DNA of 43,103 bases from Chlamydiota bacterium (GCA_013287015.1 JABDEO010000002.1:1-43103), one strand, 5' to 3'; shown: positions 2,715-43,103, numbered from the stretch's first letter. Made by a program: numbers and translations. Notes: a model not told the origin generated them from the letters alone.

Positions 2715-2717
2715 GCC

Positions 2718-2996: not shown

Positions 2997-3005
2997 AACA
3001 ATCTC

Positions 3006-3884: not shown

Positions 3885-3885
3885 T

Positions 3886-5381: not shown

Positions 5382-5391
5382 CCCTTCATCC

Positions 5392-8710: not shown

Positions 8711-8740
8711 CCATTTAGAGTTAAACGATTTTAAATAGCA

Positions 8741-9109: not shown

Positions 9110-9145
9110 TGAAAGGATGGCATAAAAAAACAACAGTTTTTGTTT

Positions 9146-12400: not shown

Positions 12401-12443
12401 GGCGACTGGCTACCTTCCTTAGCCCTCACTTTTAATTGCACCC
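12400..12443. repeat. Solo half-copy of the CCTTCCTTAGCCCTCACTTTTAATTGCACCC cassette
   Basis: GGGCGACTGGCTACCTTCCTTAGCCCTCACTTTTAATTGCACCC matches 31612-31659, and matches 31018-31053 in reverse complement. Confidence 0.9.
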
Positions 12444-12486
12444 ATAGTTTTGGAAGAACTGGACTTGTACAAAATTTTCCGTAATA

Positions 12487-13878: not shown

Positions 13879-14031
13879 GCGCTTACCCCTCTCTGTGCTC
13901 TCTGTGGGCTCTGTGGCAGCCAAAAAGCCTTAAATTGAATCATTTTAAGGCTTTATATCCACCACAGAGCCCACAGAGAGCACAGAGAGGGATAAGCGCT
14001 CACCTTTGCATATTATCCAAGACTTTTGCAA
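13854..14031. repeat. Palindromic element (arms of about 63-70 bp) with an inner CCTTAAATTGAATCATTTTAAGG hairpin
   Basis: TTGCAAAAGTCTTATGCAAAGGTGAGCGCTTACCCCTCTCTGTGCTCTCTGTGGGCTCTGTGG (13854-13916) pairs with CCACAGAGCCCACAGAGAGCACAGAGAGGGATAAGCGCTCACCTTTGCATATTATCCAAGACTTTTGCAA (13962-14031). The left arm contains the last codons and the TGA of the upstream gene. Confidence 0.95.
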
Positions 14032-14047
14032 CTGAGTTCTTCTCAGG

Positions 14048-16710: not shown

Positions 16711-16785
16711 ACGCTTACGGGCTCTGTGGTTGATATAAAACCTTAAATTGAATCATTTTAAGGCTTTTTGGCAACCACAGAGCGC
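16711..16785. repeat. Short palindromic element of the CCTTAAATTGAATCATTTTAAGG family, located inside the wzm-wzt spacer
   Basis: ACGCTTACGGGCTCTGTGGTTG...CCTTAAATTGAATCATTTTAAGG...CAACCACAGAGC. It shares the core and the CTCTGTGG/CCACAGAG arms with 13854-14031. Confidence 0.9.
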
Positions 16786-19480: not shown

Positions 19481-19553
19481 ATTTCTTTGATCAATTTTCT
19501 TGTTTGAGTCATATTAACTCAAACCATGGAATTCAGAATACAGAATTTAGCGT

Positions 19554-19620
19554 TTTTGGAGTCAGGCCTGACACTATGGCGCTTTTAAAAGCGTTATAGT
19601 ATCAGGCCTGACCCCAAAAA
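19554..19620. repeat. 67-bp palindrome carrying two GTCAGGCCTGAC-type cassettes
   Basis: TTTTTGGAGTCAGGCCTGACACTATGGCGCTTTT|AAAAGCGTTATAGTATCAGGCCTGACCCCAAAAA, immediately downstream of the histidine kinase stop codon. Confidence 0.95.
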
Positions 19621-22188: not shown

Positions 22189-23880
22189 ATGTTTCGTTTT
22201 TTTGAACAATTGAAATTGCGCGACTATGAGCCCATGACGGTTACGTGCTTGCGCGAAGGGTATACGCGCGAACGCTTTCTGCAGGATCTCTTTGCCGGAG
22301 TCAGCGTAGGCGTCATTGCGCTTCCCCTCGCTTTGGCGTTCGCCATTGGCTCGGGCGTCGCCCCGGAACAAGGCCTTTTTACTGCAATTATAGCAGGTTT
22401 TTTGATCTCTTTGCTCGGAGGCAGCCGCGTCCAAATTGGGGGTCCAACCGGAGCCTATGTCATCATTGTTTATGCGGTTATCCAACGACATGGCTATGAT
22501 GGACTGGCGGTGGCGACGCTGATTGCGGGCGTGATGATGGCCTTAATGGGATTGGCGCGTCTCGGCGTTTTGCTGAAATTCGTTCCTTATCCCGTTACAA
22601 CCGGATTCACTACAGGCATTGCATTAGTGATTTTCAGCTCGCAAATCAAAGATTTCTTTGGATTGCAAATTGAACATCTCTCTCCGAAATTTTGGGAAAA
22701 ATGTCAGCATTATTGCCTCTATGCCAACACATGGAATCCGTGGGCTGCTCTCATTTCCGTAGCGACGCTGACTTCTATTTTCGCATTGCGCCGCTATTAT
22801 CCTAAATTTCCCGGAGTCATTTCCGCCATCGCCGGCGCGACTTTGTTAACTTACCTTTTCGATATCCCTTTGGAAACAATTGAAGATAAGTTTGGCCAGA
22901 TCCCGAGAACCCTTCCCATGCCCTCATGGCCGACCACCTCTTGGAAACAGATTCAAGATGTTTTTCCCGATGCGATCACCATCGCGCTGCTTGGAGCCAT
23001 TGAGTCGCTGTTATCCGCTGTCGTAGCCGATGGCGCCACAGGGCATCGCCATCGATCCAATTGCGAATTATTGGCGCAAGGTTTGGCTAATATCGGGTCG
23101 GTGATATTCAAAGGCATTCCGGCCACCGGAGCCATTGCACGCACTTCAGCGAACATTCGCATGGGGGCCTCCTCTCCTTTCGCCGGAATGATCCACGCCG
23201 TTACATTGTTGTTATTGATGCTTTTTCTTGCTCCGCTTGCCTCGCAAATTCCTCTCTGCGCGCTTTCAGCGGTTCTAGTCTTTATCGCCTGGAACATGAG
23301 CGAATTGCCTCATTTTTATAACGTTCTTAAAGGACAGCGCAGCGACGCCATTGTTCTTGTCATTACTTTTTTATTGACAGTTCTCATCGATCTAGCTGTT
23401 GCGGTTCAAATTGGCGTTGTGTTGGCCGCCGTGTTGTTTCTTAAACGCATGACCGATTCCACAACCGTGCAAGTCTGCAAAACACTTATTGAAGAAAACG
23501 CCCATGAATCCCCGGAAAAGCATGATTCTGAAATCTTGCTGCGGCGCGATGTCCCGCACGATGTCGCCGTTTTTGAAATCAAAGGACCTTTTTTCTACAG
23601 CATTGCCGATCAGTTGGATGAAGCTCTGTCTCAATTGAATCCTCAGCCGCGAATCTTTATTCTGCGCATGCGCAGCGTTCCTTTGGTGGACTCCACCGGT
23701 TTGCATGCTCTGCAGAAATTCACTTTAAAGTGCCGTCAAAAAGGGATCGTCTTTATGGTTTCGGGAACTCGTCCAGAAATTTTGGATCTGTTCCATCAAA
23801 ACAAGCTTGACGCTCTGATCGGTCGCGAGCACATCTTCCCGCACATTAACGACGCTCTTGCCTACGCCCGAAATTTATGA
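22189..23880 (+). CDS. SulP-family inorganic anion transporter with C-terminal STAS domain
   Basis: 563 aa. SulP N-terminal block (DLFAGVSVGVIALPLALAFAIGSGVAPEQGLFTAIIAGF), multiple TM segments and a C-terminal STAS-like region (FILRMRSVPLVDSTGLHAL). Confidence 0.9.
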   Translation: MFRFFEQLKLRDYEPMTVTCLREGYTRERFLQDLFAGVSVGVIALPLALAFAIGSGVAPEQGLFTAIIAGFLISLLGGSRVQIGGPTGAYVIIVYAVIQRHGYDGLAVATLIAGVMMALMGLARLGVLLKFVPYPVTTGFTTGIALVIFSSQIKDFFGLQIEHLSPKFWEKCQHYCLYANTWNPWAALISVATLTSIFALRRYYPKFPGVISAIAGATLLTYLFDIPLETIEDKFGQIPRTLPMPSWPTTSWKQIQDVFPDAITIALLGAIESLLSAVVADGATGHRHRSNCELLAQGLANIGSVIFKGIPATGAIARTSANIRMGASSPFAGMIHAVTLLLLMLFLAPLASQIPLCALSAVLVFIAWNMSELPHFYNVLKGQRSDAIVLVITFLLTVLIDLAVAVQIGVVLAAVLFLKRMTDSTTVQVCKTLIEENAHESPEKHDSEILLRRDVPHDVAVFEIKGPFFYSIADQLDEALSQLNPQPRIFILRMRSVPLVDSTGLHALQKFTLKCRQKGIVFMVSGTRPEILDLFHQNKLDALIGREHIFPHINDALAYARNL

Positions 23881-23883
23881 CAA

Positions 23884-24072
23884 CTTGTAGCGTAGACTTC
23901 AGTCTGCGCTTGTTTGCGCAGGTTTTAACCTGCGCTTGTTTTTGCGGGTTTTAACCCGCAAGTCACACTTGCGAAAAAGGCTGAAGCGTACTTTTTGCGG
24001 GTTGAAACCCGCAAAAACAAACGCAGGTTAAAACCTGCGTAAACAAGCGCAGACTGAAGTCTACGCTACAAG
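23884..24072. repeat. 189-bp palindrome whose 78-bp arms each contain two internal hairpins (branched or cruciform potential)
   Basis: CTTGTAGCGTAGACTTCAGTCTGCGCTTGTTTGCGCAGGTTTTAACCTGCGCTTGTTTTTGCGGGTTTTAACCCGCAA (23884-23961) pairs with 23995-24072. Sub-hairpins are GCGCAGGTTTTAACCTGCGC and TGCGGGTTTTAACCCGCA. Confidence 0.95.
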
Positions 24073-26796: not shown

Positions 26797-27149
26797 CATT
26801 CAGCATTGTTCCACTGCGAACCATCGCCTATGCCCGCAGCGGCGACAAAGGCGACAGCGCCAATATTGGCGTCATTGCCTACAATGCGGCGGGTTACGCC
26901 TTCTTACGAGAATATCTTTCCGCTGATAAGGTGAATGCTTATTTCAAACCCCTAGGGGTGACTTCGACCATCCGATATGAGCTGGCCAACTTGGAAGCGT
27001 TGAATTTCGTTCTTAATCATGTACTGGCGGGCGGAGGAAGCCGTTCCCTGCGCACCGACTCTCAAGGTAAGGCGCTAGGACAAGCGATTCTTGAAATGCC
27101 CATTGAAATTGAAGATTCCATATTAAAACAAGCTCGACGCTCTTATTAG
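26793..27149 (+). CDS. Small AtuA-partner protein (AtuA-like ferredoxin-fold domain family)
   Basis: MTFSIVPLRTIAYARSGDKGDSANIGV... with the conserved RSGDKGD and LRTDSQGKALG blocks. GGAGG Shine-Dalgarno at 26781. The ATG overlaps the upstream TGA (ATGA). The part of the track ORF upstream of 26793 is an out-of-context extension. Confidence 0.8.
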   Translation: MTFSIVPLRTIAYARSGDKGDSANIGVIAYNAAGYAFLREYLSADKVNAYFKPLGVTSTIRYELANLEALNFVLNHVLAGGGSRSLRTDSQGKALGQAILEMPIEIEDSILKQARRSY

Positions 27150-27202
27150 TTATGAGCATATCTTTCCAGACGACGCCCTTGCCTACGCCCGAAGTTGTTG
27201 AA

Positions 27203-27526
27203 GCGCATTGGGGTCAGGCCTGGGCTGAAACGAATGACCGATTTTCGAAGAAAATCAGCTTGGGGTTTACCCCCTAATTTTGGCGCCGTTTTTCGACGCC
27301 AGTGAGTGGTAGGGACGATGGGGACTCAAGCGACCTTAGGGACATTAGAGACAGGGACAATCAGCTTGTTTGTCCCTGTCTCCAAGGTCCCTAAGGTCGC
27401 TTGAGTCCCCATCGTCCCTACCACTCACTGGCGTCGAAAAACGGCGCCAAAATTAGGGGGATAAAACCGGGCTGAATTTTGAAGATACTCAACCATTCGT
27501 TTCAGCCTAGGCCTGACCCAATGCGA
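27203..27526. repeat. 324-bp giant palindrome, copy 1 (arms of about 155 bp; terminal GGGTCAGGCCTG cassettes)
   Basis: CGCATTGGGGTCAGGCCTGGGCTGAAACGAATG...GGTAGGGACGATGGGGACTCAAGCGACCTTAGGGAC...centre...GTCCCTAAGGTCGCTTGAGTCCCCATCGTCCCTACC...CATTCGTTTCAGCCTAGGCCTGACCCAATGCG. The inner 100 bp or so of each arm pair almost perfectly. Confidence 0.97.
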
Positions 27527-27529
27527 CGC

Positions 27530-28199
27530 TTACATCTCTTTAAATAGATCTTCAAGCAACGCTTGATTTGTTATTATTTCCTCGGAATACATGGTCCGCT
27601 TTAAACCCATTTTAGTAATCATGCAAAAGAAAAGCTGTTTTTTTGTTCTTGTTTGCTTTCGAAAGATTTCCATTTTTTTCAACAGCTCTTGAGCGTAAGA
27701 TTTATCGATTGCAAATTGATTGTCAGAGCATTTGATTTCGCATAGAGTAATCGCTCCATCAAGTCGATCAAAAAGCAGATCAATTTGCGCTCCTTCTTGC
27801 TGTACCTCTTTTTGGATTTTTTTTGCTTTAGGCGCAAATCGCCAAGTTCCTACAGTAGCCCCTGGATCGATTTTTAATGCTTTGCGAATCTGATCGATAT
27901 GCTTATAGCATGTAGATTCGAATGATAACCCAGCCCAAATTTTCCAAGTTGGCTGATTCGATTGAGATATCCAAAATCCTTCGTTGATTGCTTTCTTAGC
28001 TATTGTCTTCAAGTTTGGCTCAATCCAACGCAAATAAAAAAGGCTATATTCATCATCAATGACGTAGTAGACTCCTCGATCTTTATGTCCATTCTGATTT
28101 ATTGGATTCAATGAGGTCTCGCAGCAATTCTTGCTCCCTACGTCGCCCTATGATCTTCTCCGTAATGTCTGCAACGTCATCCTTATTCTTGGTCATATG
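27530..28199 (-). pseudogene. Degraded ATPase gene (PF01637-type AAA ATPase with DUF234-like C-terminal domain): N-terminal 30 or so codons plus the C-terminal 190 or so codons, with the AAA core missing
   Basis: ATG at 28199 opens MTKNKDDVADITEKIIGRRREQELLRDLIES (the typical N-terminus of this ATPase family) and hits a stop after 36 codons. A second frame (TTG 28111 to 27530) encodes only the C-terminal nuclease-fold-like part (GAQIDLLFDRLDGAITLCEIKCSDNQF). No Walker A or B motif is present. Confidence 0.6.
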
Positions 28200-28399
28200 C
28201 TCCTATGGCTTTATTTTCTTAAATCTCGCGGAACACACGTGTTTTATGTTTTAAGCGCTGTGATTATATTTCTAAATGCCGCGGTAAAAATGCAAAACAA
28301 TGTCTGTTCCGCGTTCTTTATATTACCAAACGCCGCTGGAAGGAAACAAGAATTTTATGCATTGGAGTCAGACCTGACCCCACTTTAAGTAAATCATTA

Positions 28400-28454
28400 G
28401 GACAGGGGCTTCTCGAAATGCCCATTGAAATTGAAGATTTCATATTAAAACAAA
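28400..28454. repeat. Relic copy of the 3' end of the AtuA-partner gene (direct repeat of 27079-27133)
   Basis: GGACAGGGGCTTCTCGAAATGCCCATTGAAATTGAAGATTTCATATTAAAACAA compared with GGACAAGCGATTCTTGAAATGCCCATTGAAATTGAAGATTCCATATTAAAACAA. Confidence 0.9.
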
Positions 28455-28508
28455 GCCGTTCAACATAAAGGAGCAAGAGTGCAAAAGTGTAAAAGTGTAA
28501 AGATAAAA

Positions 28509-28700
28509 ATTCAACGCAAAGGCGCAAAGACGCAAAGGCGCAAAGAATAGATTTGGCCAACTCCATTGCAAGGAATAAAAATTAATGTCAGATGAGTCTG
28601 ACTTATCCTTCCTATCCTTCCTATCCTGAAATTAATTTTTATTCCTTGCAATGAAATGAGCCGCATCTATTCTTTGCGTCTTTGCGCCTTTGCGTTGAAT
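28509..28700. repeat. Two-layer palindrome with 8-mer (CGCAAAGR) and 9-mer (TATCCTTCC) micro-tandem repeats
   Basis: Outer arms are ATTCAACGCAAAGGCGCAAAGACGCAAAGGCGCAAAGAATAGAT (28509-28552) and ATCTATTCTTTGCGTCTTTGCGCCTTTGCGTTGAAT (28665-28700). Inner arms are CATTGCAAGGAATAAAAATTAAT (28564-28586) and ATTAATTTTTATTCCTTGCAATG (28631-28653). The loop contains GTCAGATGAGTCTGAC and (TATCCTTCC)x3. Confidence 0.93.
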
Positions 28701-28729
28701 CACCCCTTTACAAGCGGCGGCTCCATCGC

Positions 28730-29146
28730 TTACATCACCTTTAACAGGTGCTTCAGGAGCTTGTGGCGCAATGTCGCCGGCATTGGAATCTTCATTCTGG
28801 TCTTGCTGTCAAGGGTCACATGCACGGTTTTGGCGGAACCCACCAGCGCAGTCCGGCCGGTTTTATATATTTGATAAGAAACCGTAAAAGAAGAGCTTCC
28901 GACTTTTTCAATGCCCAGATGCACTTCAAGCAAATCTCCGATCTTTAACGGCGTCAAGTAATCCGCCTCCGCATGCACAATGACAAATACATAATGTTCT
29001 TTGTGGAAAAGATGCTGAAAACTCAGCCCCTCGCTTTCCATAAATTCCTCTAAAGCATCATGGGCGAAACGAAATTGACGCGCAAAATATAAAATGCCCG
29101 CCATATCTGTATCGTGCATGCGGACTCTATTATGAGAGATGAACAT
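28730..29146 (-). CDS. Acyl-CoA thioesterase, hotdog fold (4HBT/YbgC-like)
   Basis: MFISHNRVRMHDTDMAGILYFARQFRFAHDALEEFM..., typical of 4HBT thioesterases (catalytic Asp in the HDTD block). The internal ATG at 29146 is preferred over the track start at 29248, which overlaps holC. Confidence 0.8.
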   Translation of the reverse strand: MFISHNRVRMHDTDMAGILYFARQFRFAHDALEEFMESEGLSFQHLFHKEHYVFVIVHAEADYLTPLKIGDLLEVHLGIEKVGSSSFTVSYQIYKTGRTALVGSAKTVHVTLDSKTRMKIPMPATLRHKLLKHLLKVM

Positions 29147-29555
29147 GATGCCCTCGCGTTTGATACGCCATTCGCCGTTCCTCTGACAACCGCCGTTTGT
29201 CAGGATGCGTCTCATCCCACAACTCATACACCTTTGCAAATTGCGCATACATCGGGCTGACTTCTGGACATAAATTTAATAATATTGACGCTTTATTGAG
29301 ATTCATTTGCGTTGTAGTGATCACGATCGCCGCCTCAGCAGATTGATCGCTAATCACATGCGGGATAAATCCCTCCTCAGGCAAACGCCACAGCAACAAA
29401 TCTATGTATTGCGCAGCCTCATTGCTGGACGCTGTAATTAAAATACGCTGACCCTGTTCAAAATAATGCCGCGCCATTTTGCAGATGCGAGTGGATTTCG
29501 CCGCATTATCCGCAACGCATAAAAATACAATTATAGGAGATGTTGGAGTGTTCAT
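29130..29555 (-). CDS. holC: DNA polymerase III chi subunit (HolC)
   Basis: 141 aa. The pattern IIVFLCV...KSTRICKMARHYFEQGQRILITASSNEAAQYIDLLLWRLPEEGFIPHV matches the chi-subunit family (LD..LW....F.PH). Confidence 0.75.
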   Translation of the reverse strand: MNTPTSPIIVFLCVADNAAKSTRICKMARHYFEQGQRILITASSNEAAQYIDLLLWRLPEEGFIPHVISDQSAEAAIVITTTQMNLNKASILLNLCPEVSPMYAQFAKVYELWDETHPDKRRLSEERRMAYQTRGHHVHLS

Positions 29556-30229
29556 TTAGCCGAAATATCTTGTTGAATAGGTGGAGGAAACTCTGGCCAG
29601 ATCACGCCAATCGACACAAGCAATTTCAACGCTTCATCCACTCGCATATCGAGATGTATCAGTTGATCCTCTCGAAACATAAGCATAAAACCCATAGAGG
29701 GATTAGGCGTTCCCGGAACAAAGACCGAAATTTTGCCGATATCTTTAATGTCAGAACCCTCGGGGAGCGCTCTATGGGTCACTAAACCAATGCTCCGCGT
29801 TTTTTCATGAGGAAAAGGCGCCAGCACGACAGATGAAAAACTGGCGCCGTCTTTTGTTTTTTCCGCCAGCAACGTATGCACGACATCCTGAGTGGCCTTA
29901 TAAATGGGGCTCACCAAAGGAATGCGATGCAGAAAATAGTCTCCAACTCGACCGAAGACCCTTAAAATAACCAGTTGGGCCAAGCATCCAATCACCATAA
30001 TGACGACAATCAAGCTTACCAGCGCCACTATTTTGCTGACAAACATCAAAACCGCGGACCCTGAGAAAAATAAAATAGGTTTATTAAATAAATCATAGTA
30101 GTCGAAAGCAGTGGAAACGATGCCTACAAAGGGTTTTGTAAGGATATTAATGACAAAAACAACAATAATTATAGTGAGCGCCAGCGGAAGAAGCAAAACC
30201 AAACCAGTCAAAAAATATTTCTTCATCAC
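29552..30229 (-). CDS. DUF502-family membrane protein (paralog 2 of a tandem pair)
   Basis: 225 aa with two N-terminal TM helices, the conserved IPLVSPIYKA block and FVPGTPNPSMGF (DUF502 hallmark P-x-P-N-P-x-x-G). 4-nt overlaps with both neighbours. Confidence 0.8.
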   Translation of the reverse strand: MMKKYFLTGLVLLLPLALTIIIVVFVINILTKPFVGIVSTAFDYYDLFNKPILFFSGSAVLMFVSKIVALVSLIVVIMVIGCLAQLVILRVFGRVGDYFLHRIPLVSPIYKATQDVVHTLLAEKTKDGASFSSVVLAPFPHEKTRSIGLVTHRALPEGSDIKDIGKISVFVPGTPNPSMGFMLMFREDQLIHLDMRVDEALKLLVSIGVIWPEFPPPIQQDISAK

Positions 30230-30903
30230 ACTTCCCTTTCATTATTAGCAGGACCTTCGCCTTTATATTCTTTAAAAGGCGGCATAATCAGTCCACAGGA
30301 AATAATGTACTTGAAAGCATCCTCAACTTTCATATCCAAAGGAATAACGTCTTCTCTGTTGTATATCGTTAAAAATCCCGAAGTCGGATTGGGGGTGGTT
30401 GGAACAAATACAGCAACTAAATTTCCACCAACGCTTTGCTCTAAACCGGGCAAAGAATCGCGTGTTACAAGTCCTATCGTATACGTCTCTTGGTTGGGAA
30501 AACGCACCATTACAACTTGTTTAAATGCGCTGGTTTGTGAAGTGAAAATCGTCTTGATCACATCCTGGCAGGCCCTATATATGGGACTTACAAGCGGGAT
30601 TCGATGAATGAGATATTCCCAAAAGCGGATCATATAGTGCACAAAAAACCAGCGAGCGACAACTCCCAACAGAACCGTAAAGCCAAACAATGCTAATAAA
30701 ATCAAAGTCTGACTGAAGAAAGTCAACAGCTGTTCCGCGCTTAAAAATAAAAAACCTGTATTTAATAAGTTATAGCGACTTAAAATGGCCTGAGAAATGC
30801 CCAAGAATGGCGTTGTCAGCAAATTAAAAATAAAAGCGACCACCACCAGAGTGAGCGTGACCGGCAGAAGAATCACTAAACCGGTAATAAAATATTTCTT
30901 CAT
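30226..30903 (-). CDS. DUF502-family membrane protein (paralog 1 of a tandem pair)
   Basis: 225 aa with the same architecture: IPLVSPIYRA and FVPTTPNPTSGF. First gene of the DUF502-DUF502-holC-thioesterase operon. Confidence 0.8.
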   Translation of the reverse strand: MKKYFITGLVILLPVTLTLVVVAFIFNLLTTPFLGISQAILSRYNLLNTGFLFLSAEQLLTFFSQTLILLALFGFTVLLGVVARWFFVHYMIRFWEYLIHRIPLVSPIYRACQDVIKTIFTSQTSAFKQVVMVRFPNQETYTIGLVTRDSLPGLEQSVGGNLVAVFVPTTPNPTSGFLTIYNREDVIPLDMKVEDAFKYIISCGLIMPPFKEYKGEGPANNEREV

Positions 30904-30971
30904 TTTTTGTCCTTAAACGCTGCCCTGAGATGTGATGTGACAAACGCTCGTTCCTCGCGCTCGTCACCGCG

Positions 30972-31000
30972 TTTATAGCATATATTGAATATTTACCCAA
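30972..31000 (-). promoter_or_regulatory. Candidate sigma-70-type promoter of the DUF502 operon
   Basis: On the minus strand: TTGGGT (complement of 30995-31000), a 17-nt spacer, then TATAAA (complement of 30972-30977), about 70 nt upstream of the ATG at 30903. Pattern only. Confidence 0.25.
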
Positions 31001-31017
31001 ATACTTACAGCGCTTAC

Positions 31018-31659
31018 GGGTGCAATTAAAAGTGAGGGGTTAAGGAGGTAGCCAGGGCGTCCCGCCCTGCTTTTTAGGCAAAAAAACATTGAAGATAATA
31101 CACGCGACCAGGGCGGGACGCCCTTCCATATAACGCAGCCCTTTTGCACGTGTTATTTAACGCGAGTTTTGGGAGTTTGACGCTTTGATGCTTTTAAAAG
31201 CGCCAGGGTATTTTGGGGGTCAGGCCTGACCTGGGCTGAAACGAATGACCGATTTTCGAAGAAAATCAGCTTGGGGTTTACCCCCTAATTTTGGCGCCGT
31301 TTTTCCACGCCAGTGGGTGGTAGGGACGATGGGGACTCAAGCGACCTTAGGGACCTTGGAGACAGGGACAAATAACCTGATTGTCCCTGTCTCCAATGTC
31401 CCTAAGGTCGCTTGAGTCCCCATCGTCCCTACCACTCACTGGCGTGGAAAAACGGCGCCAAAATTAGGGGGATAAAATACGGCTAATTTTTTTCAAAAAT
31501 CAGTCATTCGTTTCAGCCCAGGCCTGACCCCAAAATACGCGCCAAAGCGTCAATGTCAGGACAATCGTTTATCCAAAACTCGCGTTATTTACAGACAAAC
31601 ACCGCGGAGCCGTAGGGCAACTGGCCACCTTCCTTAACCCCTCACTTTTAATTGCACCC
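31018..31659. repeat. Composite four-layer nested palindrome of about 640 bp; the innermost layer (31211-31537) is copy 2 of the 324-bp element
   Basis: Layer 1: GGGTGCAATTAAAAGTGAGGGGTTAAGGAGGTAGCC (31018-31053) pairs with GGCCACCTTCCTTAACCCCTCACTTTTAATTGCACCC (31623-31659). Layer 2: CCAGGGCGTCCCGCCCTG (31052-) and CCAGGGCGGGACGCCCT (31108-). Layer 3: TTATTTAACGCGAGTTTTGG... (31153-) pairs with CCAAAACTCGCGTTATTTAC (31574-31593). Layer 4: GGGGTCAGGCCTGAC...CAGGCCTGACCCC. Confidence 0.95.
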
Positions 31660-31664
31660 AGTGT

Positions 31665-32003
31665 TTACACGTCCAAGATCAACCGTATGGCATCGTCAAC
31701 AAGTTTCATCTCTTCAATTGACAATTCGCCGATTTTGTCTCCAAGCCTTTTAGTTCTATCTATAGACCTCATCTGCCTTGGAACGACTTTTCCAGCTCTT
31801 CCAGCCAAATTAATTTTCACCTCAATTTTCGAAAAAATGCGCTCTACATTACTCGTGATTGGGGCGACAACAATCAATTCAGAACGATTCGCAATGTCGC
31901 TGGAAATAATAAGACAAGGACGCGTCTTGTTTATTCCTTTACCATCAGTTGGATCTAAACGCACCCAGTAAATATCACCTCTTTTTGGATAATCATTTTT
32001 CAT
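31665..32003 (-). CDS. mazF: Type II toxin-antitoxin system toxin, PemK/MazF family endoribonuclease
   Basis: 112 aa. PKRGDIYWVRLDPTDGKGINKTRPCLIISSDIANRSELIVVAPITS is the canonical PemK/MazF N-terminal pattern. It overlaps the upstream antitoxin gene by 11 nt. Confidence 0.88.
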   Translation of the reverse strand: MKNDYPKRGDIYWVRLDPTDGKGINKTRPCLIISSDIANRSELIVVAPITSNVERIFSKIEVKINLAGRAGKVVPRQMRSIDRTKRLGDKIGELSIEEMKLVDDAIRLILDV

Positions 32004-32262
32004 TTACTGTCTGTTCTCCAAAATCAAAATCGTCCATCCCAATAAAATCTTCACCTTCAATATTAGAAAAATTTTGTTTAACTTCGATATTTCCAATGTC
32101 TTTATCAGCTTCTAAAAACTCCATTAGTAAAGTTTTTTCATCTTTCTTGAGAGCTTCCCACAAAGCCTGAGTGACGAATTTACTCATTTTACCTCGCCCA
32201 ACCCTAGTGTGTAGAGCGGCATCCAACTGCTCAGGAATTGTATATGTTACAGCTTTTTTCAT
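31993..32262 (-). CDS. Cognate antitoxin (ribbon-helix-helix-like N-terminus, acidic C-terminal tail)
   Basis: MKKAVTYTIPEQLDAALHTRVGRGKMSKFVTQALWEAL (RHH pattern), then an acidic tail (EGEDFIGMDDFDFGE). AGGAG Shine-Dalgarno upstream of the ATG at 32262; the track ORF starts further upstream at 32304. Confidence 0.75.
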   Translation of the reverse strand: MKKAVTYTIPEQLDAALHTRVGRGKMSKFVTQALWEALKKDEKTLLMEFLEADKDIGNIEVKQNFSNIEGEDFIGMDDFDFGEQTVNEK

Positions 32263-32388
32263 GATAATGTAACTCCTCTTTGCTTGAATTATACATATAT
32301 TCATATATATTTATCAAGTCCAAAGCTTGGTATATTTGAATATTTCAACATAAAAAATCCCTTCTTGGTTATAATTAATAACATCATT

Positions 32389-33771
32389 ATGGAATTCATT
32401 CATCAAGCCTACCAACCCGGCGAAACCATCGCCGCAGTCGCCACTCCTCCGGGAGAGGGCGGCGTCGCGATTGTGCGTATTTCGGGTAAAAACGCTCTAA
32501 ATGTCGCCTCAAAAATTTTTTCGGGTCCCATCCATCAATATCGCACGCACACCGCGCACTACGGGAAAATTTTTAATCAAGCCGGCGAACATATCGACGA
32601 CGTTCTCTTACTCGTGATGTTAGGCAAACGCTCCTACACCGGAGAAAACACTGTCGAAATCCACTGTCATGGCGGAGGATTGATCACGCGCCGCGTTCTA
32701 GAAACTGTTTTACATGCAGGCTGTCGCGCGGCAAGACCCGGAGAGTTCACATTTAAGGCCTTTATGAATGGAAGGCTCGATCTTGCCCAAGCTGAAGCTG
32801 TGCAAGAATTGATTTGCGCGAAGAACGAACATGCGCTTAACGCCGCAGAAAATCAGTTGCAGGGGGCGCTTTCACGTAAAATATCGAATTTTCAAACCTC
32901 CTTGACTTTGATCGCCGCCATCCTTGAAGCTTGGGTCGATTTCCCTGAAGAAGGCCTTGAATTCGCCAGTATGGAGGAAATTTCCGATCAACTCACCGAT
33001 GTGTGCACACAGATGTCGCGCCTTGCCGCAACTTTTCACGATGGCAAAATCTTGCATGATGGCGTTTCCCTTTGCCTGATCGGCTGCCCTAATGTGGGGA
33101 AATCTTCGTTGATGAATGCACTGCTCGATAAAGAACGCGCCATTGTCTCGCATATTCCCGGCACCACTCGCGATATTTTAGAAGACCACGTTCGCTTAAA
33201 TGGGTTGAATTTACGCTTAACTGACACCGCAGGCATCCGCGATTCTGATGAATGCATCGAACAGGAGGGAATCCGCCGCTCCAAGGCGGCGATGGCTGAC
33301 GCCGATCTCATTTTGCTCGTATTCGACGCATCCAAGCCCATTGCGGAAGAAGAACGGCGGCTCATCACGGAGGTTCCTCCAACCAAGACGATTGTCATCT
33401 GGAACAAAATCGATCTGCCCCATCATGAATCGCCGCTCTTTGATTTTCCTTTTTCGCATATCGTCAAAATTTCAGCGAAGGAAAAAACAGGCTTGGATCT
33501 ATTGCGTAAGAAGATTGATGAGGTTATCTGGGAGCGCGGGCCTCCTGCGCGTGATGAAGTTCTGATAACGAATGTACGTCACAAAGAAGCGTTGAATCGA
33601 GCCATCGGCGCCTGCCAAACGATAATTGACGGGCTGCGCAGTGGAGTTTCGCCGGAATTCCTTTCATTCGACATGCGTCAATGTCTCAGCGAACTCGGGG
33701 TCATCATAGGCGTTAACATCACTGAAGATATTCTTTCAGCCATTTTTTCCAAATTCTGCATCGGAAAATAA
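32389..33771 (+). CDS. mnmE: tRNA modification GTPase MnmE (TrmE)
   Basis: N-terminal ETIAAVATPPGEGGVAIVRISG, G-domain GCPNVGKSSLMNAL / DTAGIR / NKIDL, and the invariant C-terminal FCIGK. ATG at 32389; the track ORF begins upstream at 32284. Confidence 0.95.
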   Translation: MEFIHQAYQPGETIAAVATPPGEGGVAIVRISGKNALNVASKIFSGPIHQYRTHTAHYGKIFNQAGEHIDDVLLLVMLGKRSYTGENTVEIHCHGGGLITRRVLETVLHAGCRAARPGEFTFKAFMNGRLDLAQAEAVQELICAKNEHALNAAENQLQGALSRKISNFQTSLTLIAAILEAWVDFPEEGLEFASMEEISDQLTDVCTQMSRLAATFHDGKILHDGVSLCLIGCPNVGKSSLMNALLDKERAIVSHIPGTTRDILEDHVRLNGLNLRLTDTAGIRDSDECIEQEGIRRSKAAMADADLILLVFDASKPIAEEERRLITEVPPTKTIVIWNKIDLPHHESPLFDFPFSHIVKISAKEKTGLDLLRKKIDEVIWERGPPARDEVLITNVRHKEALNRAIGACQTIIDGLRSGVSPEFLSFDMRQCLSELGVIIGVNITEDILSAIFSKFCIGK

Positions 33772-33801
33772 TGTTCTTGCGCATTCAAATAGATAATCAC
33801 C

Positions 33802-34908
33802 TTATTCGCTCGAGTGCAAAGCCCACGCTGCAACCTCTTCCTCTATAGTGTTGTAGCGCTGATAATCCTCATATTCCTCACAATTCTCAAACTCGTCATG
33901 ACCGATTAATTTTTCAATGTTTCGAAAAATGCTGCATATTTCTTCGACTTTTTCATATTCGCCATTGTAGATTATTTTATGAAGATTTGTTAGTTGCTCC
34001 GGTGTGAATTGAATGTTCGCATTCGCATTCCGTTCAACAAGTATTTTTTTTTGGCCTTCTGACAAAGTCATTTTAAAGTTTGAAACTGATGTTCGAAGCT
34101 CATTGACATCGTTGCTATCCAAAGTTTCTATTATATCCATGGCTTCGTCGGCATACAATTCAGCGAATTCCTTACCATATTGTTTTTCAATCGATTCTTT
34201 TAATTCATCAGGCAACACTTGACTGCCTCCTGTCCTATATAAACCATATAAATATTTTAAAGCTTCATCACTCTCAGCATCTTTTTTCTCCACTTTGTCA
34301 GCAAGAAAGGAGAAAAGCCCATAATAAAGCGATTTGAAAGCCTCAGACCGAATTTTTTCCGATTCGCCTTTAGTATTTATCAAAAATACCAAGTAGTAAC
34401 GACTCATTTTTTTTAATACATCGATAAGCGGTTGGATTAATGATAATTTAGGAGGAGGCTCGCTTACACTCCAGTCATCTAATACTTTTTTTAAAACCCC
34501 CAAAGCTGTTATACTTATTGGCTTTTCTGAAATACGTTCACATAAAACGCCCATATCTATCATTTTTTTATCTTCCAACCGAATTTTTTCTTCACATTGG
34601 GCGATAATTTTTTCAAATTGCTCCCTCAGCAGCGTTATTCCTACCGCTTCGGGACTTATTTTTTTCATAAACAGATTCATAAGAAATTCTTTCGATTTCT
34701 CGGAATTTACAGTTCCCGATTGCAATCCTTTAATTTTATTAATTAACTGTTCTAATGAGACTGAGACTCCTTCCATTGATTCTGATTTTTTAAACACATG
34801 ACCATGCGATTTTTCTCCGGGAGAATACACAAGTTCTGCACTGAATTTTTCTAATTGACTCCAATTTTCTATTCCTTGCAATGGGTTGTTCTCAGATATA
34901 GAAGTCAT
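33802..34908 (-). CDS. Acidic helical hypothetical protein, tandem paralog A (368 aa)
   Basis: Long ORF sharing most residues with 35123..36259, including a conserved upstream region of about 110 bp. No signal peptide, TM segment or recognisable family. Confidence 0.7.
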   Translation of the reverse strand: MTSISENNPLQGIENWSQLEKFSAELVYSPGEKSHGHVFKKSESMEGVSVSLEQLINKIKGLQSGTVNSEKSKEFLMNLFMKKISPEAVGITLLREQFEKIIAQCEEKIRLEDKKMIDMGVLCERISEKPISITALGVLKKVLDDWSVSEPPPKLSLIQPLIDVLKKMSRYYLVFLINTKGESEKIRSEAFKSLYYGLFSFLADKVEKKDAESDEALKYLYGLYRTGGSQVLPDELKESIEKQYGKEFAELYADEAMDIIETLDSNDVNELRTSVSNFKMTLSEGQKKILVERNANANIQFTPEQLTNLHKIIYNGEYEKVEEICSIFRNIEKLIGHDEFENCEEYEDYQRYNTIEEEVAAWALHSSE

Positions 34909-35122
34909 GACACCCTCCTAATTTTTACAAATGTTGAAATAATAAATAAATATAAACAATAAACTGTATTATTACTTACATAATAACCTATAAAAATAAA
35001 AAACACACAATTTATTATTTAAAGTAATCAGATCGTCCCGACCTGATTACTGATGCATTCAAGGCCGGGACGGCCTTGTTATCTTATACCGCCACCATGA
35101 CTTTTTAAGGACGTACCTAAAA

Positions 35123-36259
35123 TCATCTTATTCGCTCGAGTGCAAGAACCCACGCTGCAACCTCTTCCTCTATAGTGTTGTAGCGCTGATAATCCTCATA
35201 TTCCTCACAATTCTCAAACTCGTCATGACCGATTAATCTTTCAATGTTTCGAAAAATGCTGCATATTTTTTCGACTTTTTCATATTCGCCATTGTTGATT
35301 ATTTTATGAAGATTTGTTAGTTGCTCCGGTGTGAATTGAATGTTCGCATTCCGTTCAACAAGTATTTTTTTTTGGCCTTCTGACAAAGTCATTCTAAAGT
35401 TTGAAAGTAGTGTTTGAAGCGCCTTGACATCGTTGCTATCCAAAGTTTCTATTATATCCATGGCTTCGTCGGCATACAATTCAGCGAATTCCTTACCATA
35501 TTGTTTTTCAATCGACTTTTTTAAAACATTAGGCAAGGCTTGACTGCCTCCTGTCCTATATAAATCATATAAATATTTTAAAGCTTCATCACTTTCAGCA
35601 TCTTTTTTTTCCACTTTGTCAGCAAGAAAGGAGAAAAGCCCATAATAAAGCGATTTGAAAGCCTCAGACCGAATTTTTTCCGATTCGTCTTTAGTATGTG
35701 TCAAAAATAAAAGGTCGAAACGAGGCATTTTTTTTAATACATCGATAAGGGGTTGGATTAATGATAATTTAGGAGGAGGCTTGCTTATATTCCAGCCATC
35801 TAATATTTCTTTTAAAACCCCCAAAGCTGTTATACTTATCGGATTTTCTGAAATACATTCACATAAGGTGCGCATATTTATCATTCTTTTATCTTCTACC
35901 CGAGATTTTTCTTCATCTTGTGTTAATGAAAGTTCAGGAAATGCTTGAGTAATGATTTTTTCAAATCTCCCTCTTAGCAGCGTTATTCCTGGCGCTTCGG
36001 GGCTTATTTTTTTCATAAACAGATTCATAAGAAATTCTTTCGATTTCTCGAGATTTACGGTTCCCGATTGCAATGCTTTAATTTTGGTAATTAACTGCTC
36101 CAATGAGACTGAGATTCCGTCCGTTGATCCTGATTTTTTGAACACATGACCATGCAATTCTTTTTCGGAGGGAGAATACTCAAATTCTGAACTGAATTTT
36201 TCTAATTGACTCCAATTTTCTATTCCCTGCAATGGGTTGTTGTCAGATATAGAAGTCAT
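35123..36259 (-). CDS. Acidic helical hypothetical protein, tandem paralog B (378 aa)
   Basis: Same family as 33802..34908. It has a 10-aa insertion (AFPELSLTQD) and a different C-terminal tail caused by a 1-nt indel near the 3' end. Confidence 0.7.
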   Translation of the reverse strand: MTSISDNNPLQGIENWSQLEKFSSEFEYSPSEKELHGHVFKKSGSTDGISVSLEQLITKIKALQSGTVNLEKSKEFLMNLFMKKISPEAPGITLLRGRFEKIITQAFPELSLTQDEEKSRVEDKRMINMRTLCECISENPISITALGVLKEILDGWNISKPPPKLSLIQPLIDVLKKMPRFDLLFLTHTKDESEKIRSEAFKSLYYGLFSFLADKVEKKDAESDEALKYLYDLYRTGGSQALPNVLKKSIEKQYGKEFAELYADEAMDIIETLDSNDVKALQTLLSNFRMTLSEGQKKILVERNANIQFTPEQLTNLHKIINNGEYEKVEKICSIFRNIERLIGHDEFENCEEYEDYQRYNTIEEEVAAWVLALERIR

Positions 36260-36456
36260 GACACCCTCCTAATTTTTACAAATGTTGAAATAATAAATAA
36301 ATATAAACAACAAACTGTATTATCACTAATCACATAATAACATATAAAAATTAAAAAACACACTTTATTATTTAAATCAGCCAATATCTAATTTTTTGGG
36401 TAATACTCCTATGCCGACACGATTGAATTTGAAACATCCCTTTGGGTACATCCTTA

Positions 36457-36691
36457 AATAACGCGAGTTTTGGATAAACGATTGCCCTGATATTGACGCT
36501 TTGGCGCGTATTTTGGGGTCAGGCCTGACACTATGACACTTTTAAAAACGCCAGTATGACACGTTTCAAAGCATCATACTGGCGTTTTTAAAAGTGTCAT
36601 AGTGTCAGGCCTGACCCCAAAAATACCCTGGCGCTTTTAAAAGTATCAAAGTGTCAAACTCACCTTTGCACGTTGTGCAAGACTTTTGCAA
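36457..36691. repeat. Mosaic repeat block: AACGCGAGTTTTGGATAAACG cassette, a 113-bp GTCAGGCCTGAC palindrome (36511-36623), a GCGCTTTTAAAAG cassette and a CACCTTTGCA...GACTTTTGCAA cassette
   Basis: 36457-36536 is the reverse complement of 31521-31593. 36511-36623 is a palindrome (TTTTGGGGTCAGGCCTGACACTATGACACTTTTAAAAACGCCAGTATGA...). 36623-36660 is the reverse complement of 31177-31213. 36661-36691 resembles 14001-14031. Confidence 0.93.
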
Positions 36692-38018: not shown

Positions 38019-38049
38019 ACGGAACATTTAGGCTTTTTTTATCCATTCC

Positions 38050-38303
38050 TTCGCGCAGCGTTTGGAGTGCGTGCGACTTGTCGCCGCTTTGGAAGACCTC
38101 GACTTGTCGAGGTCGAAGCGTAAATCTAAAATACCCAAAAGCTGGCGTTTTTAACGTTGAACAGGTCATATTGTCGATAGCAAAACGCTTTCCCATGTTA
38201 ACGTAAGCTAGCTTCTAGATGTTTTAGATTCACGCTTCGACCTCGACAAATCGAGGTCTTCCAAAGCGGCGACAAGTCGCACGCACTCCAAACGCTGCGC
38301 GAA
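38050..38303. repeat. 254-bp palindrome (82-bp arms, loop of about 90 bp) unrelated in sequence to the other families
   Basis: TTCGCGCAGCGTTTGGAGTGCGTGCGACTTGTCGCCGCTTTGGAAGACCTCGACTTGTCGAGGTCGAAGCGTAAATCTAAAA (38050-38131) pairs with 38222-38303. Each arm has an internal hairpin, CCTCGACTTGTCGAGG. Confidence 0.95.
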
Positions 38304-38353
38304 AGAAAAGTTAAAAAAAACTAAAATCGAATCTGTAAATCACTGCATTTTGT

Positions 38354-39432: not shown

Positions 39433-39532
39433 ACCTACCTCTGACCTCTGAAAACTTTAAGGTTCAATAATTTCTTTATCTATACCTCGTATTATCAGAT
39501 TACCTTAAAATTAGCAAGCGATCATGCATGAC

Positions 39533-39580
39533 GAAGGAAGGTAGCCAGGGCGGGACGCCCTGGTTACCTTCCTTAGCCCT
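39533..39580. repeat. 48-bp hairpin cassette AAGGAAGGTAGCCAGGGCGggaCGCCCTGGTTACCTTCCTT, directly after the MFS-PlsC stop codon
   Basis: Perfect or near-perfect stem of about 20 bp. It shares the CCAGGGCGGGACGCCCTGG and CCTTCCTTAGCCCT cassettes with 31041-31125, 31623-31640 and 12410-12425. It probably also acts as a terminator. Confidence 0.9.
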
Positions 39581-39583
39581 GCA

Positions 39584-42903: not shown

Positions 42904-43048
42904 TTTTATCTCCATTTTGGCTTATTCTAATTCCTAAATCGCACCAGACTTTGGCTAATGTATTTACCTGTTTTAAGAGTTTTAGTCAAGAGTCATTTCA
43001 ACATCATCAACCATTAATAGTTCATAAGATTTTGAATATAAGTTACTT

Positions 43049-43103
43049 ATAAAACGCGAGTTCTAGATAAACGAGGCCTCGTTCACCTCTCTGTGTGTTC
43101 TGT
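43049..43103. repeat. Start of another mosaic repeat, truncated by the window end
   Basis: ATAAAACGCGAGTTCTAGATAAACGA resembles the 36457/31574 cassette. CACCTCTCTGTGTGTTCTGT resembles the CCCCTCTCTGTGCTCTCTGTGG arm at 13887. Confidence 0.6.

Follow-up and report, generated by a model that had tools for sequence, protein, structure and literature searches.

Several kinds of short bacterial repeat resemble the element described here. REPINs, of the REP-RAYT system, are non-coding, intergenic and 70–110 bp long, and consist of mirror-image halves that fold as one long hairpin; small local hairpins within the arms make an alternative cloverleaf fold possible, and compensatory changes are common in these hairpins (PMC3116915). 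Their REP units measure 20–40 nt and a GTAG/CGTC tag is found at the ends. Copy number within a genome is high, and the genome also carries a cognate RAYT gene, for an HUH Y1 transposase, with the repeat on its flanks. They occur as single units, doublets and mosaics with other units, and target-site duplication is not expected. The TIR repeats of TIRYT genes, which are RAYT-like, carry the consensus GGGGWSAS in the inverted repeats flanking these genes; they are moderately abundant, sometimes self-complementary and present as single units, dimers or clusters, and the published cases are from phyla other than the one considered here (Di Nocera et al. 2013, PMC3733652). MITEs such as the Correia, Nezha and RPE elements are also small, non-coding and repeated, with inverted-repeat ends. 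They are found as nested insertions and in intergenic positions near gene ends, and short-read assemblies are broken at them; a target-site duplication of fixed length and a parent insertion sequence are expected for them. Inverted repeats are in addition subject to a process of their own, known for quasi-palindromes (Ripley model): template switching between the arms leads to arm homogenisation and spacer inversion (PMC8604942), and one template-switch step can make compensatory changes in hairpins (PMC8794818). In the literature searched we found no report of a REPIN-like element of the sort described below in Chlamydiota.

The DNA analysed is a stretch of 43,103 nt (the window) from a Chlamydiota bacterium (GCA_013287015.1 JABDEO010000002.1:1-43103), whose source organism is a Parachlamydiaceae-like uncultured chlamydia. 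The original prediction of two palindromes of about 324 bp was borne out: both are real and their limits needed correction by 3 nt at most. Copy 1 (27204–27525, 322 bp; no strand is assigned to any of the repeats) is the derived copy and lies in a patchwork intergenic region, where it starts 4 nt past the stop codon of a DUF234 gene remnant and 54 nt past that of AtuA_C. Copy 2 (31208–31538, 331 bp including GTATTTT/AAAATAC ends) is located 126 nt past the MazF stop codon and 305 nt upstream of the DUF502a start. Each copy forms one long imperfect hairpin of about 150 bp with an arm complementarity of 86–89%, and the RNA folds reach −272 and −280 kcal/mol (z = −32 and −31 against shuffled sequences). 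The copies are 90.5% identical when aligned directly and 88% when one is inverted (BLAST E 1e-104 to 1e-122). Neither encodes a transposase, their longest open frame being one of 56 codons without homologue. Scans of public sequences yielded no copies beyond the two in the window, and with two sequences a covariation control is uninformative.

Like REPINs, the copies are non-coding and intergenic, fold from mirror-image halves, contain small local hairpins within the arms with a possible cloverleaf alternative, occur as single units, doublets and mosaics with other units, and need no target-site duplication. They are, however, about three to four times longer (320 bp), only two are seen, and they lack the GTAG/CGTC tag at their ends, the only GTAG being internal, in GGTAGGGAC. 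The resemblance to MITEs lies in size, lack of coding capacity, repetition, inverted-repeat ends, nesting, location near gene ends and broken short-read assemblies, but here the palindrome covers the whole element rather than the termini alone, and a target-site duplication is not consistently present. The flanks of copy 1 (CGCATT / AATGCG) are inverted, not direct; copy 2 can be read with a 7-nt GCCTGAC duplication, in which case copy 1 has only 2 nt, so that the two readings are inconsistent. Neither the window nor the loci compared contain a parent insertion sequence that shares these termini, and the ends of the IS5-type transposase of L085 are unrelated to the element. The 43-kb window contains no transposase, RAYT or TIRYT gene, nor did scanning related loci (1.37 Mb) for motifs reveal a transposase.

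The ends of the element are discrete. Homology between the copies is bounded at GGGGTCAG...CTGACCCC, the limits of between-copy similarity being GGGGTCAGGCC...GGCCTGACCC. The ends read (T)TTTGGGGTCAGGCCTG and carry a short palindromic unit, GGGGTCAGGCCTGACCCC, split in two; this end unit is only an 18-bp palindrome, shorter than a REP unit. Of the four ends of copies 1 and 2, three carry GGGGTCAG, the exception being the right end of copy 1 with TGGGTCAG; the palindrome at 36511 has GGGGTCAG at both ends. Two further palindrome families in the window share the element ends. One is a second locus with the flanks of copy 2 (36455–36661), which includes the palindrome 36511–36622 and has GGGGTCAGGCCTGAC ends around a different, 76-nt interior. 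The other is a 68-bp palindrome (19553–19620) with the same TTTTGGGGTCAGGCCTGAC ends and an interior of 28 nt. GGGGTCAG is thus common to the families at 19553, 27204, 31208 and 36511 and to an unsplit 18-bp palindrome, GGAGTCAGACCTGACCCC (28365–28382), which represents the end motif with nothing inside; the start of L084 carries a homologue of the latter, GTCAGGCCTGAC. In all, the window includes eight GGGGTCAG sites. These ends fit GGGGWSAS, the consensus of the inverted repeats flanking TIRYT genes (PMC3733652), which is matched 11 times in the window, where 3.65 ± 2.15 matches would be expected. The similarity to TIR repeats extends to the occurrence of single units, dimers and clusters, but the end match is to a short degenerate motif of only 8 nt.

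The surroundings of the two copies differ. Around copy 2, inverted repeats are nested in one another over 650 bp, with the copy itself as the core, and all layers are paired in the DNA fold. The left half of the next layer (31155–31207) pairs with 31539–31591, and these flanks recur around the palindrome at 36455–36661; the left arm of the outermost repeat (31017–31069) has its partner at 31613–31666 and belongs to a family with further members at 12398–12450 and 39524–39584. Copy 1 abuts what is left of a SulP-type gene 3′ end (27122–27201, plus strand), which meets the 3′ end of AtuA_C in a shared AAAACAA and is 75% identical to 23795–23875, the 3′ end of the SulP gene preceding the palindrome 23884–24072. 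On its other side is the gene that had been described as a degraded ATPase (27530–28111, minus strand). It is indeed an N-terminally truncated remnant, which retains the C-terminal part, DUF234, of a protein of the ATPase-DUF234 family, and is found in three other contexts without the repeat (81–91% nucleotide identity). The last 65 nt of AtuA_C (27067–27131) recur at 28389–28453 (plus strand, 86% identical), and these duplicates bracket a 1.32-kb insert that holds copy 1. A gene 3′-end fragment at the edge of copy 1 fits recombination equally well as transposition. The 192-bp palindrome already noticed at 28509–28700 was confirmed; it is unrelated to the copies, has arms of CGCAAAG repeats, lies 29 nt past the thioesterase stop codon and has family members in four other chlamydial loci. 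Such structures are numerous: the window and 80 chlamydial mnmE loci contain 113 palindromes of 60–670 bp, often nested, and some families are common to several chlamydial genomes.

A comparison of the two copies provides information on how the arms evolve. The near-perfect inner stem and loop (27270–27460 in copy 1, 31281–31471 in copy 2) differ between copies at only 4 of about 90 stem positions. Among these is the G:C to C:G swap that had been predicted, found at exactly the sites expected: 27295 G pairs with 27435 C in copy 1, and 31306 C with 31446 G in copy 2. The number of compensated pairs expected by chance in the inner stem, calculated from stem counts, is about 0.015, a value that is post hoc because the site had already been singled out. 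In the L088 outgroup the site has the copy 2 state, in a loose alignment. The compensated change is a single case. The outer arms had been described as the same asymmetric arms in both copies. This is correct on the left, where they are identical over 65 nt with no private changes, but not on the right, where about 14–17 of 60 positions differ, with about 15 private changes across both copies. This asymmetry of 0 versus 15 may reflect a functional left outer arm or recent gene conversion between the copies. Similarly, the description of the copies as direct repeats applies to their outer parts only. The central 63 nt of copy 2 match copy 1 with 3 mismatches when reverse-complemented and 8 when aligned directly; the segment concerned, the loop and flanking stem at 27344–27386 including the mismatched pair 27344/27386, is inverted with respect to 31355–31397 in copy 2, and the flip pattern is seen at three alignment columns.

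The original prediction offered selection for the hairpin or concerted conversion between arms as explanations for the swap. The observations support the view that the arms do not evolve independently and, because the centre is inverted between the copies, concerted change between arms is favoured over selection for the hairpin. A two-sided change combined with inversion of the centre corresponds to the published signature of template switching or recombination between inverted-repeat arms, although this identifies a pattern and not a process. Both products known from quasi-palindrome homogenisation (PMC8604942, PMC8794818) are seen: arms matched anew, here through G:C to C:G on both sides, and a spacer inverted together with adjacent stem. 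However, the published arms are mostly 5–20 bp whereas those described here are about 150 bp, and RecA-dependent recombination between arms so long would give the same outcome, indistinguishable here.

In the alternative based on selection, the hairpin would be a functional RNA (a terminator, a 3′-end stabiliser or an RNase III substrate) in which selection for pairing fixed an independent compensatory mutation. Both copies do follow genes on the minus strand, at 4 nt and 126 nt from the stop codons, and the palindrome class as a whole starts at a median of 9 nt from the stop codon and is depleted in divergent spacers; the folds are very stable and one inner-stem change is G.U-compatible. But a single one of the 23 stem positions that differ between copies is compensated while pairing is lost at 16, and the 19 outer-zone changes include no compensated one. 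Nor is there a strand bias of G.U versus A.C mismatches, either in the element or on the sense strand of 52 palindromes whose orientation was set by the upstream gene (131 G.U versus 135 A.C). On either strand, the sequence immediately after the large hairpin is AAAA or AATG, with A-runs rather than the U-runs of an intrinsic terminator; the terminator consensus scan found only a small internal minus-strand hairpin which, followed by a T-rich run, belongs in both copies to the conserved left outer arm. Rfam gave no match above threshold, the sub-threshold matches being to miRNA-precursor families only, i.e., generic hairpins, and the equivalent palindromes of L088 and L089 occupy a divergent promoter spacer and not a 3′ end. 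A functional RNA is an unlikely explanation. Also unlikely is the proposal that the GGGAC-rich core, with its mirror-oriented arrays of short repeats, is a conserved protein-binding operator for mnmE and/or the DUF502-holC operon, copy 1 being an accidental duplicate. A smaller relative of the core, with GGGAC units every 9 nt, sits in the orthologous spacer of L088, in the middle of the divergent mnmE/DUF502a region at about 80–90 nt from each start codon. It is the sole other GGGAC-array palindrome in 1.41 Mb, and aligns with the core with a score of 64 (shuffles, 19 ± 3.4). Moreover, in the chlamydial contig L083 a single arm (33 nt identical) precedes an ABC-F gene by 108 nt, in the same orientation relative to that gene as in the window, and other palindrome families are also made of tandem short motifs (CTCTGTG, CAGGAT, CGCAAAG). 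Against this, the GGGAC palindrome is absent from L012, L089, L093 and L091, where the spacer is the same or similar; GGGAC spacing is irregular in the window copies (9, 18, 15 nt); copy 1 has a gene 3′ end on either side; between copy 2 and the DUF502a start there are 305 nt, and between copy 2 and mnmE a MazEF pair; and no candidate binding protein is known.

Two other readings are very improbable. In the first, as originally suggested, the repeats terminate a composite, transposon-like unit that imported the 3.7-kb block between them or is able to mobilise it. The repeats of about 320 bp are indeed 3.7 kb apart with their outer arms direct, and homologous recombination between them could in principle excise or duplicate the block, which is trivially true. 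The neighbours named with this suggestion were identified correctly: the bracketed operon (28730–30903, minus strand) encodes a thioesterase, HolC and two DUF502 proteins (Pfam). But the flanking repeats are non-coding, without an ORF of more than 56 codons and without a transposase, and no direct repeat surrounds the whole unit. Synteny indicates that the operon is ancestral in its place. Rather than lying elsewhere, the block occupies the same site in L012, L088, L089/L090 and L093, next to mnmE and/or AtuA as far as the contigs reach. The order mnmE, DUF502, DUF502, (holC), thioesterase, AtuA is found in at least four relatives, all without the repeat, the two sites being empty or occupied by unrelated palindromes. 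The genes between the copies were thus shown to have held that order before the repeat existed. The block proteins are only 50–76% identical to their counterparts in L012, L089/L090, L088 and L093 whereas the repeats are 90% identical to each other, so the arrangement is far older than the repeats. The second reading, in which the palindromes are fold-back chimeras produced by metagenome assembly, is just as improbable. The independent Logan contigs L001 and L087, assembled from short reads of the same sample, end near the repeats without spanning them, and no independent sequence of either copy was found; yet short-read assemblers are expected to break contigs at repeats. The copies differ by about 9%, have dissimilar flanks and carry private substitutions in every arm, and comparable palindromes are found at corresponding sites between genes in many independent assemblies, among them megabase-scale contigs and two records of complete chromosomes.

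The preferred reading is arm-to-arm copying within a palindromic repeat. The GGGAC-rich core of about 110 bp would have arisen between mnmE and the DUF502 operon in an ancestor shared with the L088 organism, and would then have been extended in the lineage of the window organism. The element may later have been copied as a discrete unit to the site beside AtuA, generating copy 1. The sole lead to a mobilising enzyme is a RAYT-like (TIRYT) tyrosine transposase, a candidate in view of the agreement between the ends and the published GGGGWSAS consensus. The arms are presumably kept alike at the DNA level, by replication template switching or arm recombination that would overwrite one arm with the other and occasionally invert the centre, giving rise to the flipped centre. 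The single compensated G:C to C:G change would likewise have come from arm copying and not from selection on RNA, most likely in the copy 1 lineage. A point against this reading is that, between the window organism and L088, conservation of the core equals that of the flanking coding DNA, a hint of constraint. Overall, we consider it probable that the two copies represent a nested palindromic repeat without coding capacity, of the REP/REPIN/MITE type, whose arms are kept alike by arm-to-arm copying and whose compensated change is a product of that process. Most likely, the element has no role specific to the genes that it brackets.

Self-comparison of the window recovers two long palindromes, at 27204-27525 (copy 1) and 31208-31538 (copy 2), with an arm complementarity of 86-89%, and the palindrome pair described in the original prediction is therefore present. 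Each is predicted to fold as a single long hairpin, with energies of -272 kcal/mol (copy 1) and -280 kcal/mol (copy 2); relative to shuffled sequences, the z-scores are -32 and -31. Identity between the copies is 90.5% when they are aligned directly and 88% when one is inverted, and their similarity is bounded by GGGGTCAGGCC...GGCCTGACCC(C), which indicates that a discrete unit was copied. The gene content proposed for the intervening region also holds: the two DUF502 genes, holC and the thioesterase gene are confirmed by Pfam, the palindrome at 28509-28700 is found (192 bp) and "degraded ATPase" is a fair label for the ORF at 27530-28111, which represents the C-terminal DUF234 part of an ATPase-DUF234 protein.

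Alignment of the four arms, with left arms as read and right arms reverse-complemented, reveals three zones. In the outer zone (about 60 nt per arm), the left arms of both copies are identical across 65 nt, whereas the right arms together show about 15 private changes. Seven sites in this zone distinguish left from right alike in both copies, which identifies these as direct repeats. Under a single rate of change for the four arms, the binomial probability of 0 versus 15 private changes is about 3e-5 (our own calculation); the asymmetry could stem from recent gene conversion between the copies or from a constraint acting on the left outer arm. The inner zone (about 90 bp per arm) is almost perfect and just four stem positions vary between copies. 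These are a compensated pair, a pair which is G.U-compatible on the plus strand, an A.C mismatch (G.U on the minus strand) and a mismatch found in both copies, for which the two arms have exchanged bases. Over the central 63 nt, copy 1 shows eight differences from copy 2 but only three from its reverse complement; the loop and adjacent stem of one copy have therefore been inverted with respect to the outer arms.

The compensated pair (27295 G and 27435 C in copy 1; 31306 C and 31446 G in copy 2) occurs exactly as originally reported, and had been attributed either to selection for the hairpin or to conversion between its arms. In the 151-pair structure, 123 pairs never vary, three are changed on one side and still pair, one is compensated and 24 include unpaired cells. 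The copies differ at 23 stem positions, at 16 of which the pair is lost in one copy, and compensation is seen for none of the 19 outer-zone changes. A covariation shuffle control, with two sequences only, reached the observed value in 367 of 500 shuffles. About 0.015 compensated pairs would be expected by chance from the inner-zone change rate, which argues that the arms do not evolve independently, an argument concerning one event picked after the fact.

Template switching between the arms of inverted repeats is known to homogenise the arms and invert the spacer (PMC8604942) and can create apparently compensatory hairpin substitutions in one step (PMC8794818). A two-sided change accompanied by an inverted centre matches this published pattern, and copying of one arm onto the other at the DNA level is the best explanation for the compensated substitution; ordinary recombination between arms of this length (150 bp) would generate an identical pattern. 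Of the two causes originally envisaged, conversion is thus favoured by the flipped centre and the two-sided change, while selection on an RNA has left no sign in the mismatch balance, the flanks or Rfam. G.U and A.C mismatches are about equally frequent within this element and number 131 and 135, respectively, in 52 chlamydial palindromes located between same-strand genes and oriented by the upstream gene. On both strands, A-runs rather than U-runs follow the large hairpin, and Rfam includes no family matching at gathering score, a relaxed threshold yielding only sub-threshold matches to miRNA precursors, which are generic hairpins. The paired substitution is no evidence for a functional RNA and, more generally, when long DNA palindromes show compensated changes, these should not be taken as RNA covariation. 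The closest described kinds of element are REPINs/BIMEs, together with TIR repeats and MITEs, and compensatory changes across the hairpin are reported to be common in REPIN/BIME hairpins (PMC3116915). A flipped centre with direct outer arms provides a clear example from nature of copying or recombination between the 150-bp arms of a bacterial palindrome.

The original prediction had also considered the arrangement to be composite-transposon-like. This was rejected since the bracketed block (28730-30903, minus strand) occurs in conserved order in relatives without the repeat. The best relatives of MnmE (32284-33771) are from Parachlamydiaceae and other environmental chlamydiae (59-75% identity). 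Type III secretion genes are also present on the minus strand at 1848-6390 (Pfam Bac_export_1, FliP, FliH and YscJ/FliF); these are read as SctT, SctR, SctL and SctJ and are consistent with a chlamydial origin. In one related locus, L012, the order is AtuA, AtuA_C, one gene, a 573-bp palindrome, thioesterase, holC, DUF502, DUF502, a small gene, mnmE, metK and NFACT. In L089/L090 it is mnmE, a 277-bp palindrome, DUF502, DUF502, a thioesterase gene overlapping AtuA_C, and AtuA, and in L088 and L093 it is metK, mnmE, DUF502, DUF502. The 573-bp and 277-bp palindromes are both unrelated to the window repeat, which is absent from all of these loci. Protein identity between these loci and the window is 50-76%, whereas the repeat copies differ by just 10%; this old gene order, conserved without the repeat, implies that the repeats were added to a pre-existing arrangement. 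Judged by synteny, which refutes the idea, the bracketed gene block is not mobile, and the arrangement needs no special explanation beyond the repeat family. Integron attC sites were likewise rejected because the neighbours are core genes in conserved order.

Compared to these relatives, the window has gained material in three places. Between AtuA_C and the thioesterase gene, about 1.6 kb holds the 3′ fragment of a SulP gene, copy 1, the remnant ATPase gene, the end motif in unsplit form, a duplicate of the final 65 nt of AtuA_C and a palindrome of CGCAAAG repeats. The duplicated 65 nt, from the AtuA ferredoxin-like gene (27067-27131 and 28389-28453, 86% identity), bracket a 1.32-kb insert with copy 1 and the ATPase remnant, and both end in a similar C-terminal peptide. 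The 77-nt SulP-type remnant (27122-27201; compare 23795-23880) lies directly 5′ of copy 1 and joins AtuA_C at the common bases AAAACAA; the intact SulP gene (22189-23880) is immediately followed by a different palindrome. The DUF234 remnant (27530-28111) was considered as a nuclease or transposase for the repeat and rejected: it is an ordinary ATPase-DUF234 tail and close homologues elsewhere have no copy of this repeat after them. The remnant, with the same N-terminal truncation, is also found in L084, L085 and L086 (81-91% nucleotide identity), which come from other samples and represent three different genomic contexts. Most database homologues are likewise truncated and lie on short contigs, and the fragment may belong to a gene that is multi-copy or mobile. 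The second gain, between mnmE and its adjacent DUF502 gene (DUF502a), comprises a nested stack around copy 2 and a MazEF-like pair. The latter, a gene for a MazF/PemK toxin preceded by a small partner gene (31665-32304, between copy 2 and mnmE), is absent from the corresponding spacer in L012, L088, L089 and L093. The third consists of two paralogous genes between mnmE and metK, which are without an intervening gene in L012, L088 and L093. This tandem pair (33795-35023 and 35121-36376; 368 and 378 aa; 89.6% nucleotide identity over about 1265 nt; G+C 33-36%) has no Pfam or NCBIfam match.

The end motif of the element family is GGGGTCAGGCCTG. The same ends, of the form (TTTT)GGGGTCAGGCCTGAC, also delimit two other palindromes, one of 68 bp at 19553 and one of 112 bp at 36511; when unsplit, the motif is an 18-bp palindrome, GGAGTCAGACCTGACCCC, at 28365. 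A close relative, L084, carries GTCAGGCCTGAC at its contig start and this occurs in no other fetched locus. Around copy 2, inverted repeats form two more layers, one joining 31155-31207 with 31539-31591 and the other 31017-31069 with 31613-31666. Together with copy 2 itself this makes three layers, each of which is paired in the predicted fold of the 663-nt region, and the middle layer also encloses the different palindrome at 36511. No target-site duplication is consistent across the two copies; Y1 HUH enzymes are not known to make one. The sequence GGGGTCAG fits the consensus GGGGWSAS, of which the window contains 11 matches against 3.65 expected. This is the consensus of inverted repeats, themselves forming families, which flank the genes of RAYT-like (TIRYT) tyrosine transposases (PMC3733652). 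The window contains no RAYT-like/TIRYT gene and a scan for HUH ... Y..NP motifs revealed none in 1.37 Mb of related loci, and this resemblance of the ends is a lead, not a demonstration. A Tn3-type end was also considered: the first 38 nt are identical at 20 of 38 positions to the Tn3 inverted repeat, with GGGGTC and AACGAA at matching positions, but the conserved TAAG and the 5-bp duplication are absent and the similarity was dropped as coincidence.

Further copies of the repeat were sought. A 36-mer gave no matches among genomes representing one per species, and a 20-mer yielded one chance match (L082) and one single-arm match (L083) in JGI metagenomes. Two scans of viral contigs, searches of plasmid and phage collections and a protein query with the longest open frame through the palindrome gave none. 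When all fetched loci were searched with motifs and with an nhmmer profile built from the four arms, only L083 was returned, plus a weak match in L088. The L083 match (5608-5655) is a single non-palindromic arm, with 33 nt identical and 44/49 overall, 108 nt upstream of an ABC-F gene on a Parachlamydiaceae-like metagenome contig. In a look-up for other assemblies of the locus, the AtuA_C product was not on record, and same-sample Logan contigs (L001 and L087) end short of both copies. These independent short-read contigs, and L090 from the L089 organism, end at or near palindromes, and the repeats therefore fragment assemblies; the window itself ends (43040-43103) inside CTCTGTG-type repeats, beside a motif resembling the middle layer of copy 2.

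The 1.41 Mb of sequence fetched contains mirror-image GGGAC arrays at only three places, namely both copies in the window and L088 3668-3739; the latter lies in the mnmE-DUF502a spacer, a position orthologous to that of copy 2. The alignment of the L088 site with the copy 2 centre scores 64 (shuffles 19 +/- 3.4, maximum 32) and reaches into TTTCC(A/G)(C/T)GCC.GTG. At the compensated position L088 has the copy 2 state, although the alignment is loose there, and the two-sided change thus probably arose in copy 1. The element is absent from other relatives having this spacer. In the simplest reading, a small GGGAC hairpin would have arisen in the mnmE-DUF502a spacer of an ancestor common with L088, been enlarged in the lineage of the window and later been copied to the site beside AtuA. 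The GGGAC core is conserved to a degree that would still permit a sequence-specific function, for example protein binding.

Palindromes of this general kind are widespread. Self-comparison of the window and 80 chlamydial mnmE loci identified 113 palindromes of 60-670 bp, with at least one in 44 of the 81 sequences; they reach 670 bp around mnmE and occur in 43 of the 80 loci (L002-L081), examples being L012 6546-7118, L021 4254-4921 and L010 12013-12327. Their arms are composed of tandem short motifs (CTCTGTG, CAGGAT, CGCAAAG) and small local hairpins in nested combinations, and they form families common to several genomes. One family has 17 members composed of CTCTGTG repeats, including those at 13851 and 16721 in the window, and others are based on CAGGAT repeats, CGCAAAG repeats or small GAC-TT-GTC hairpins. 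After merging overlapping matches, 106 sites remain: 29 in convergent spacers, 52 tandem, 12 divergent, five inside ORFs and eight at contig edges. They start at a median of 9 nt past the nearest stop codon. The window has nine further palindromes (8739-9111, 13851-14034, 16719-16783, 19553-19620, 23884-24072, 28509-28700, 36511-36622, 38026-38327 and 39524-39584) of 61-373 bp; all but one begin within about 30 nt of a stop codon and several belong to families present in other chlamydial genomes. Another family, of 165-175 bp, is found in at least six genomes (members at L018 2450-2616, L029 139-312 and 3584-3753, L030 8169-8335, L046 13351-13518 and L077 1726-1900). Inspected by eye, one of its arms is GAAAGCTCCCGCG and the opposite arm CGGGGGCTTTG, so that the same G.T mismatches would seem to fall repeatedly on a single strand, which could reflect a strand-specific constraint.

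No description of such palindromes in chlamydiae was found in searchable papers, genome papers mentioning "repetitive elements" only generally. It is conceivable, though we consider it improbable, that environmental chlamydiae harbour a phylum-wide, hierarchical and so far undescribed palindrome system with a dedicated hairpin- or motif-recognising activity. Hairpins of tandem 7-9-nt motifs (GGGAC, CTCTGTG, CAGGAT, CGCAAAG) would be seeded no more than about 10 nt from stop codons and would grow to 300-670 bp by insertion of palindromes into their centres or by arm-to-arm copying, with families common to genomes whose MnmE proteins are each just 60-75% identical to that of the window. A HUH transposase recognising GGGGWSAS could supply this activity, or else some unknown protein, and the palindromes would not be a passive by-product. 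Were this true, the flipped centre, two-sided substitution and three nested layers of the copies would record the process in action.

The element itself is an ordinary intergenic palindromic repeat, in a phylum where none was described. What is worth keeping is the flipped centre as evidence of arm-to-arm exchange and the class of nested palindromes adjacent to stop codons. This wider class may outweigh the finding at the locus: large nested palindromes immediately following stop codons occur widely among environmental chlamydiae, break short-read assemblies of their genomes and may mark an unrecognised mobile-element system or an unusual mode of gene ending in the phylum.
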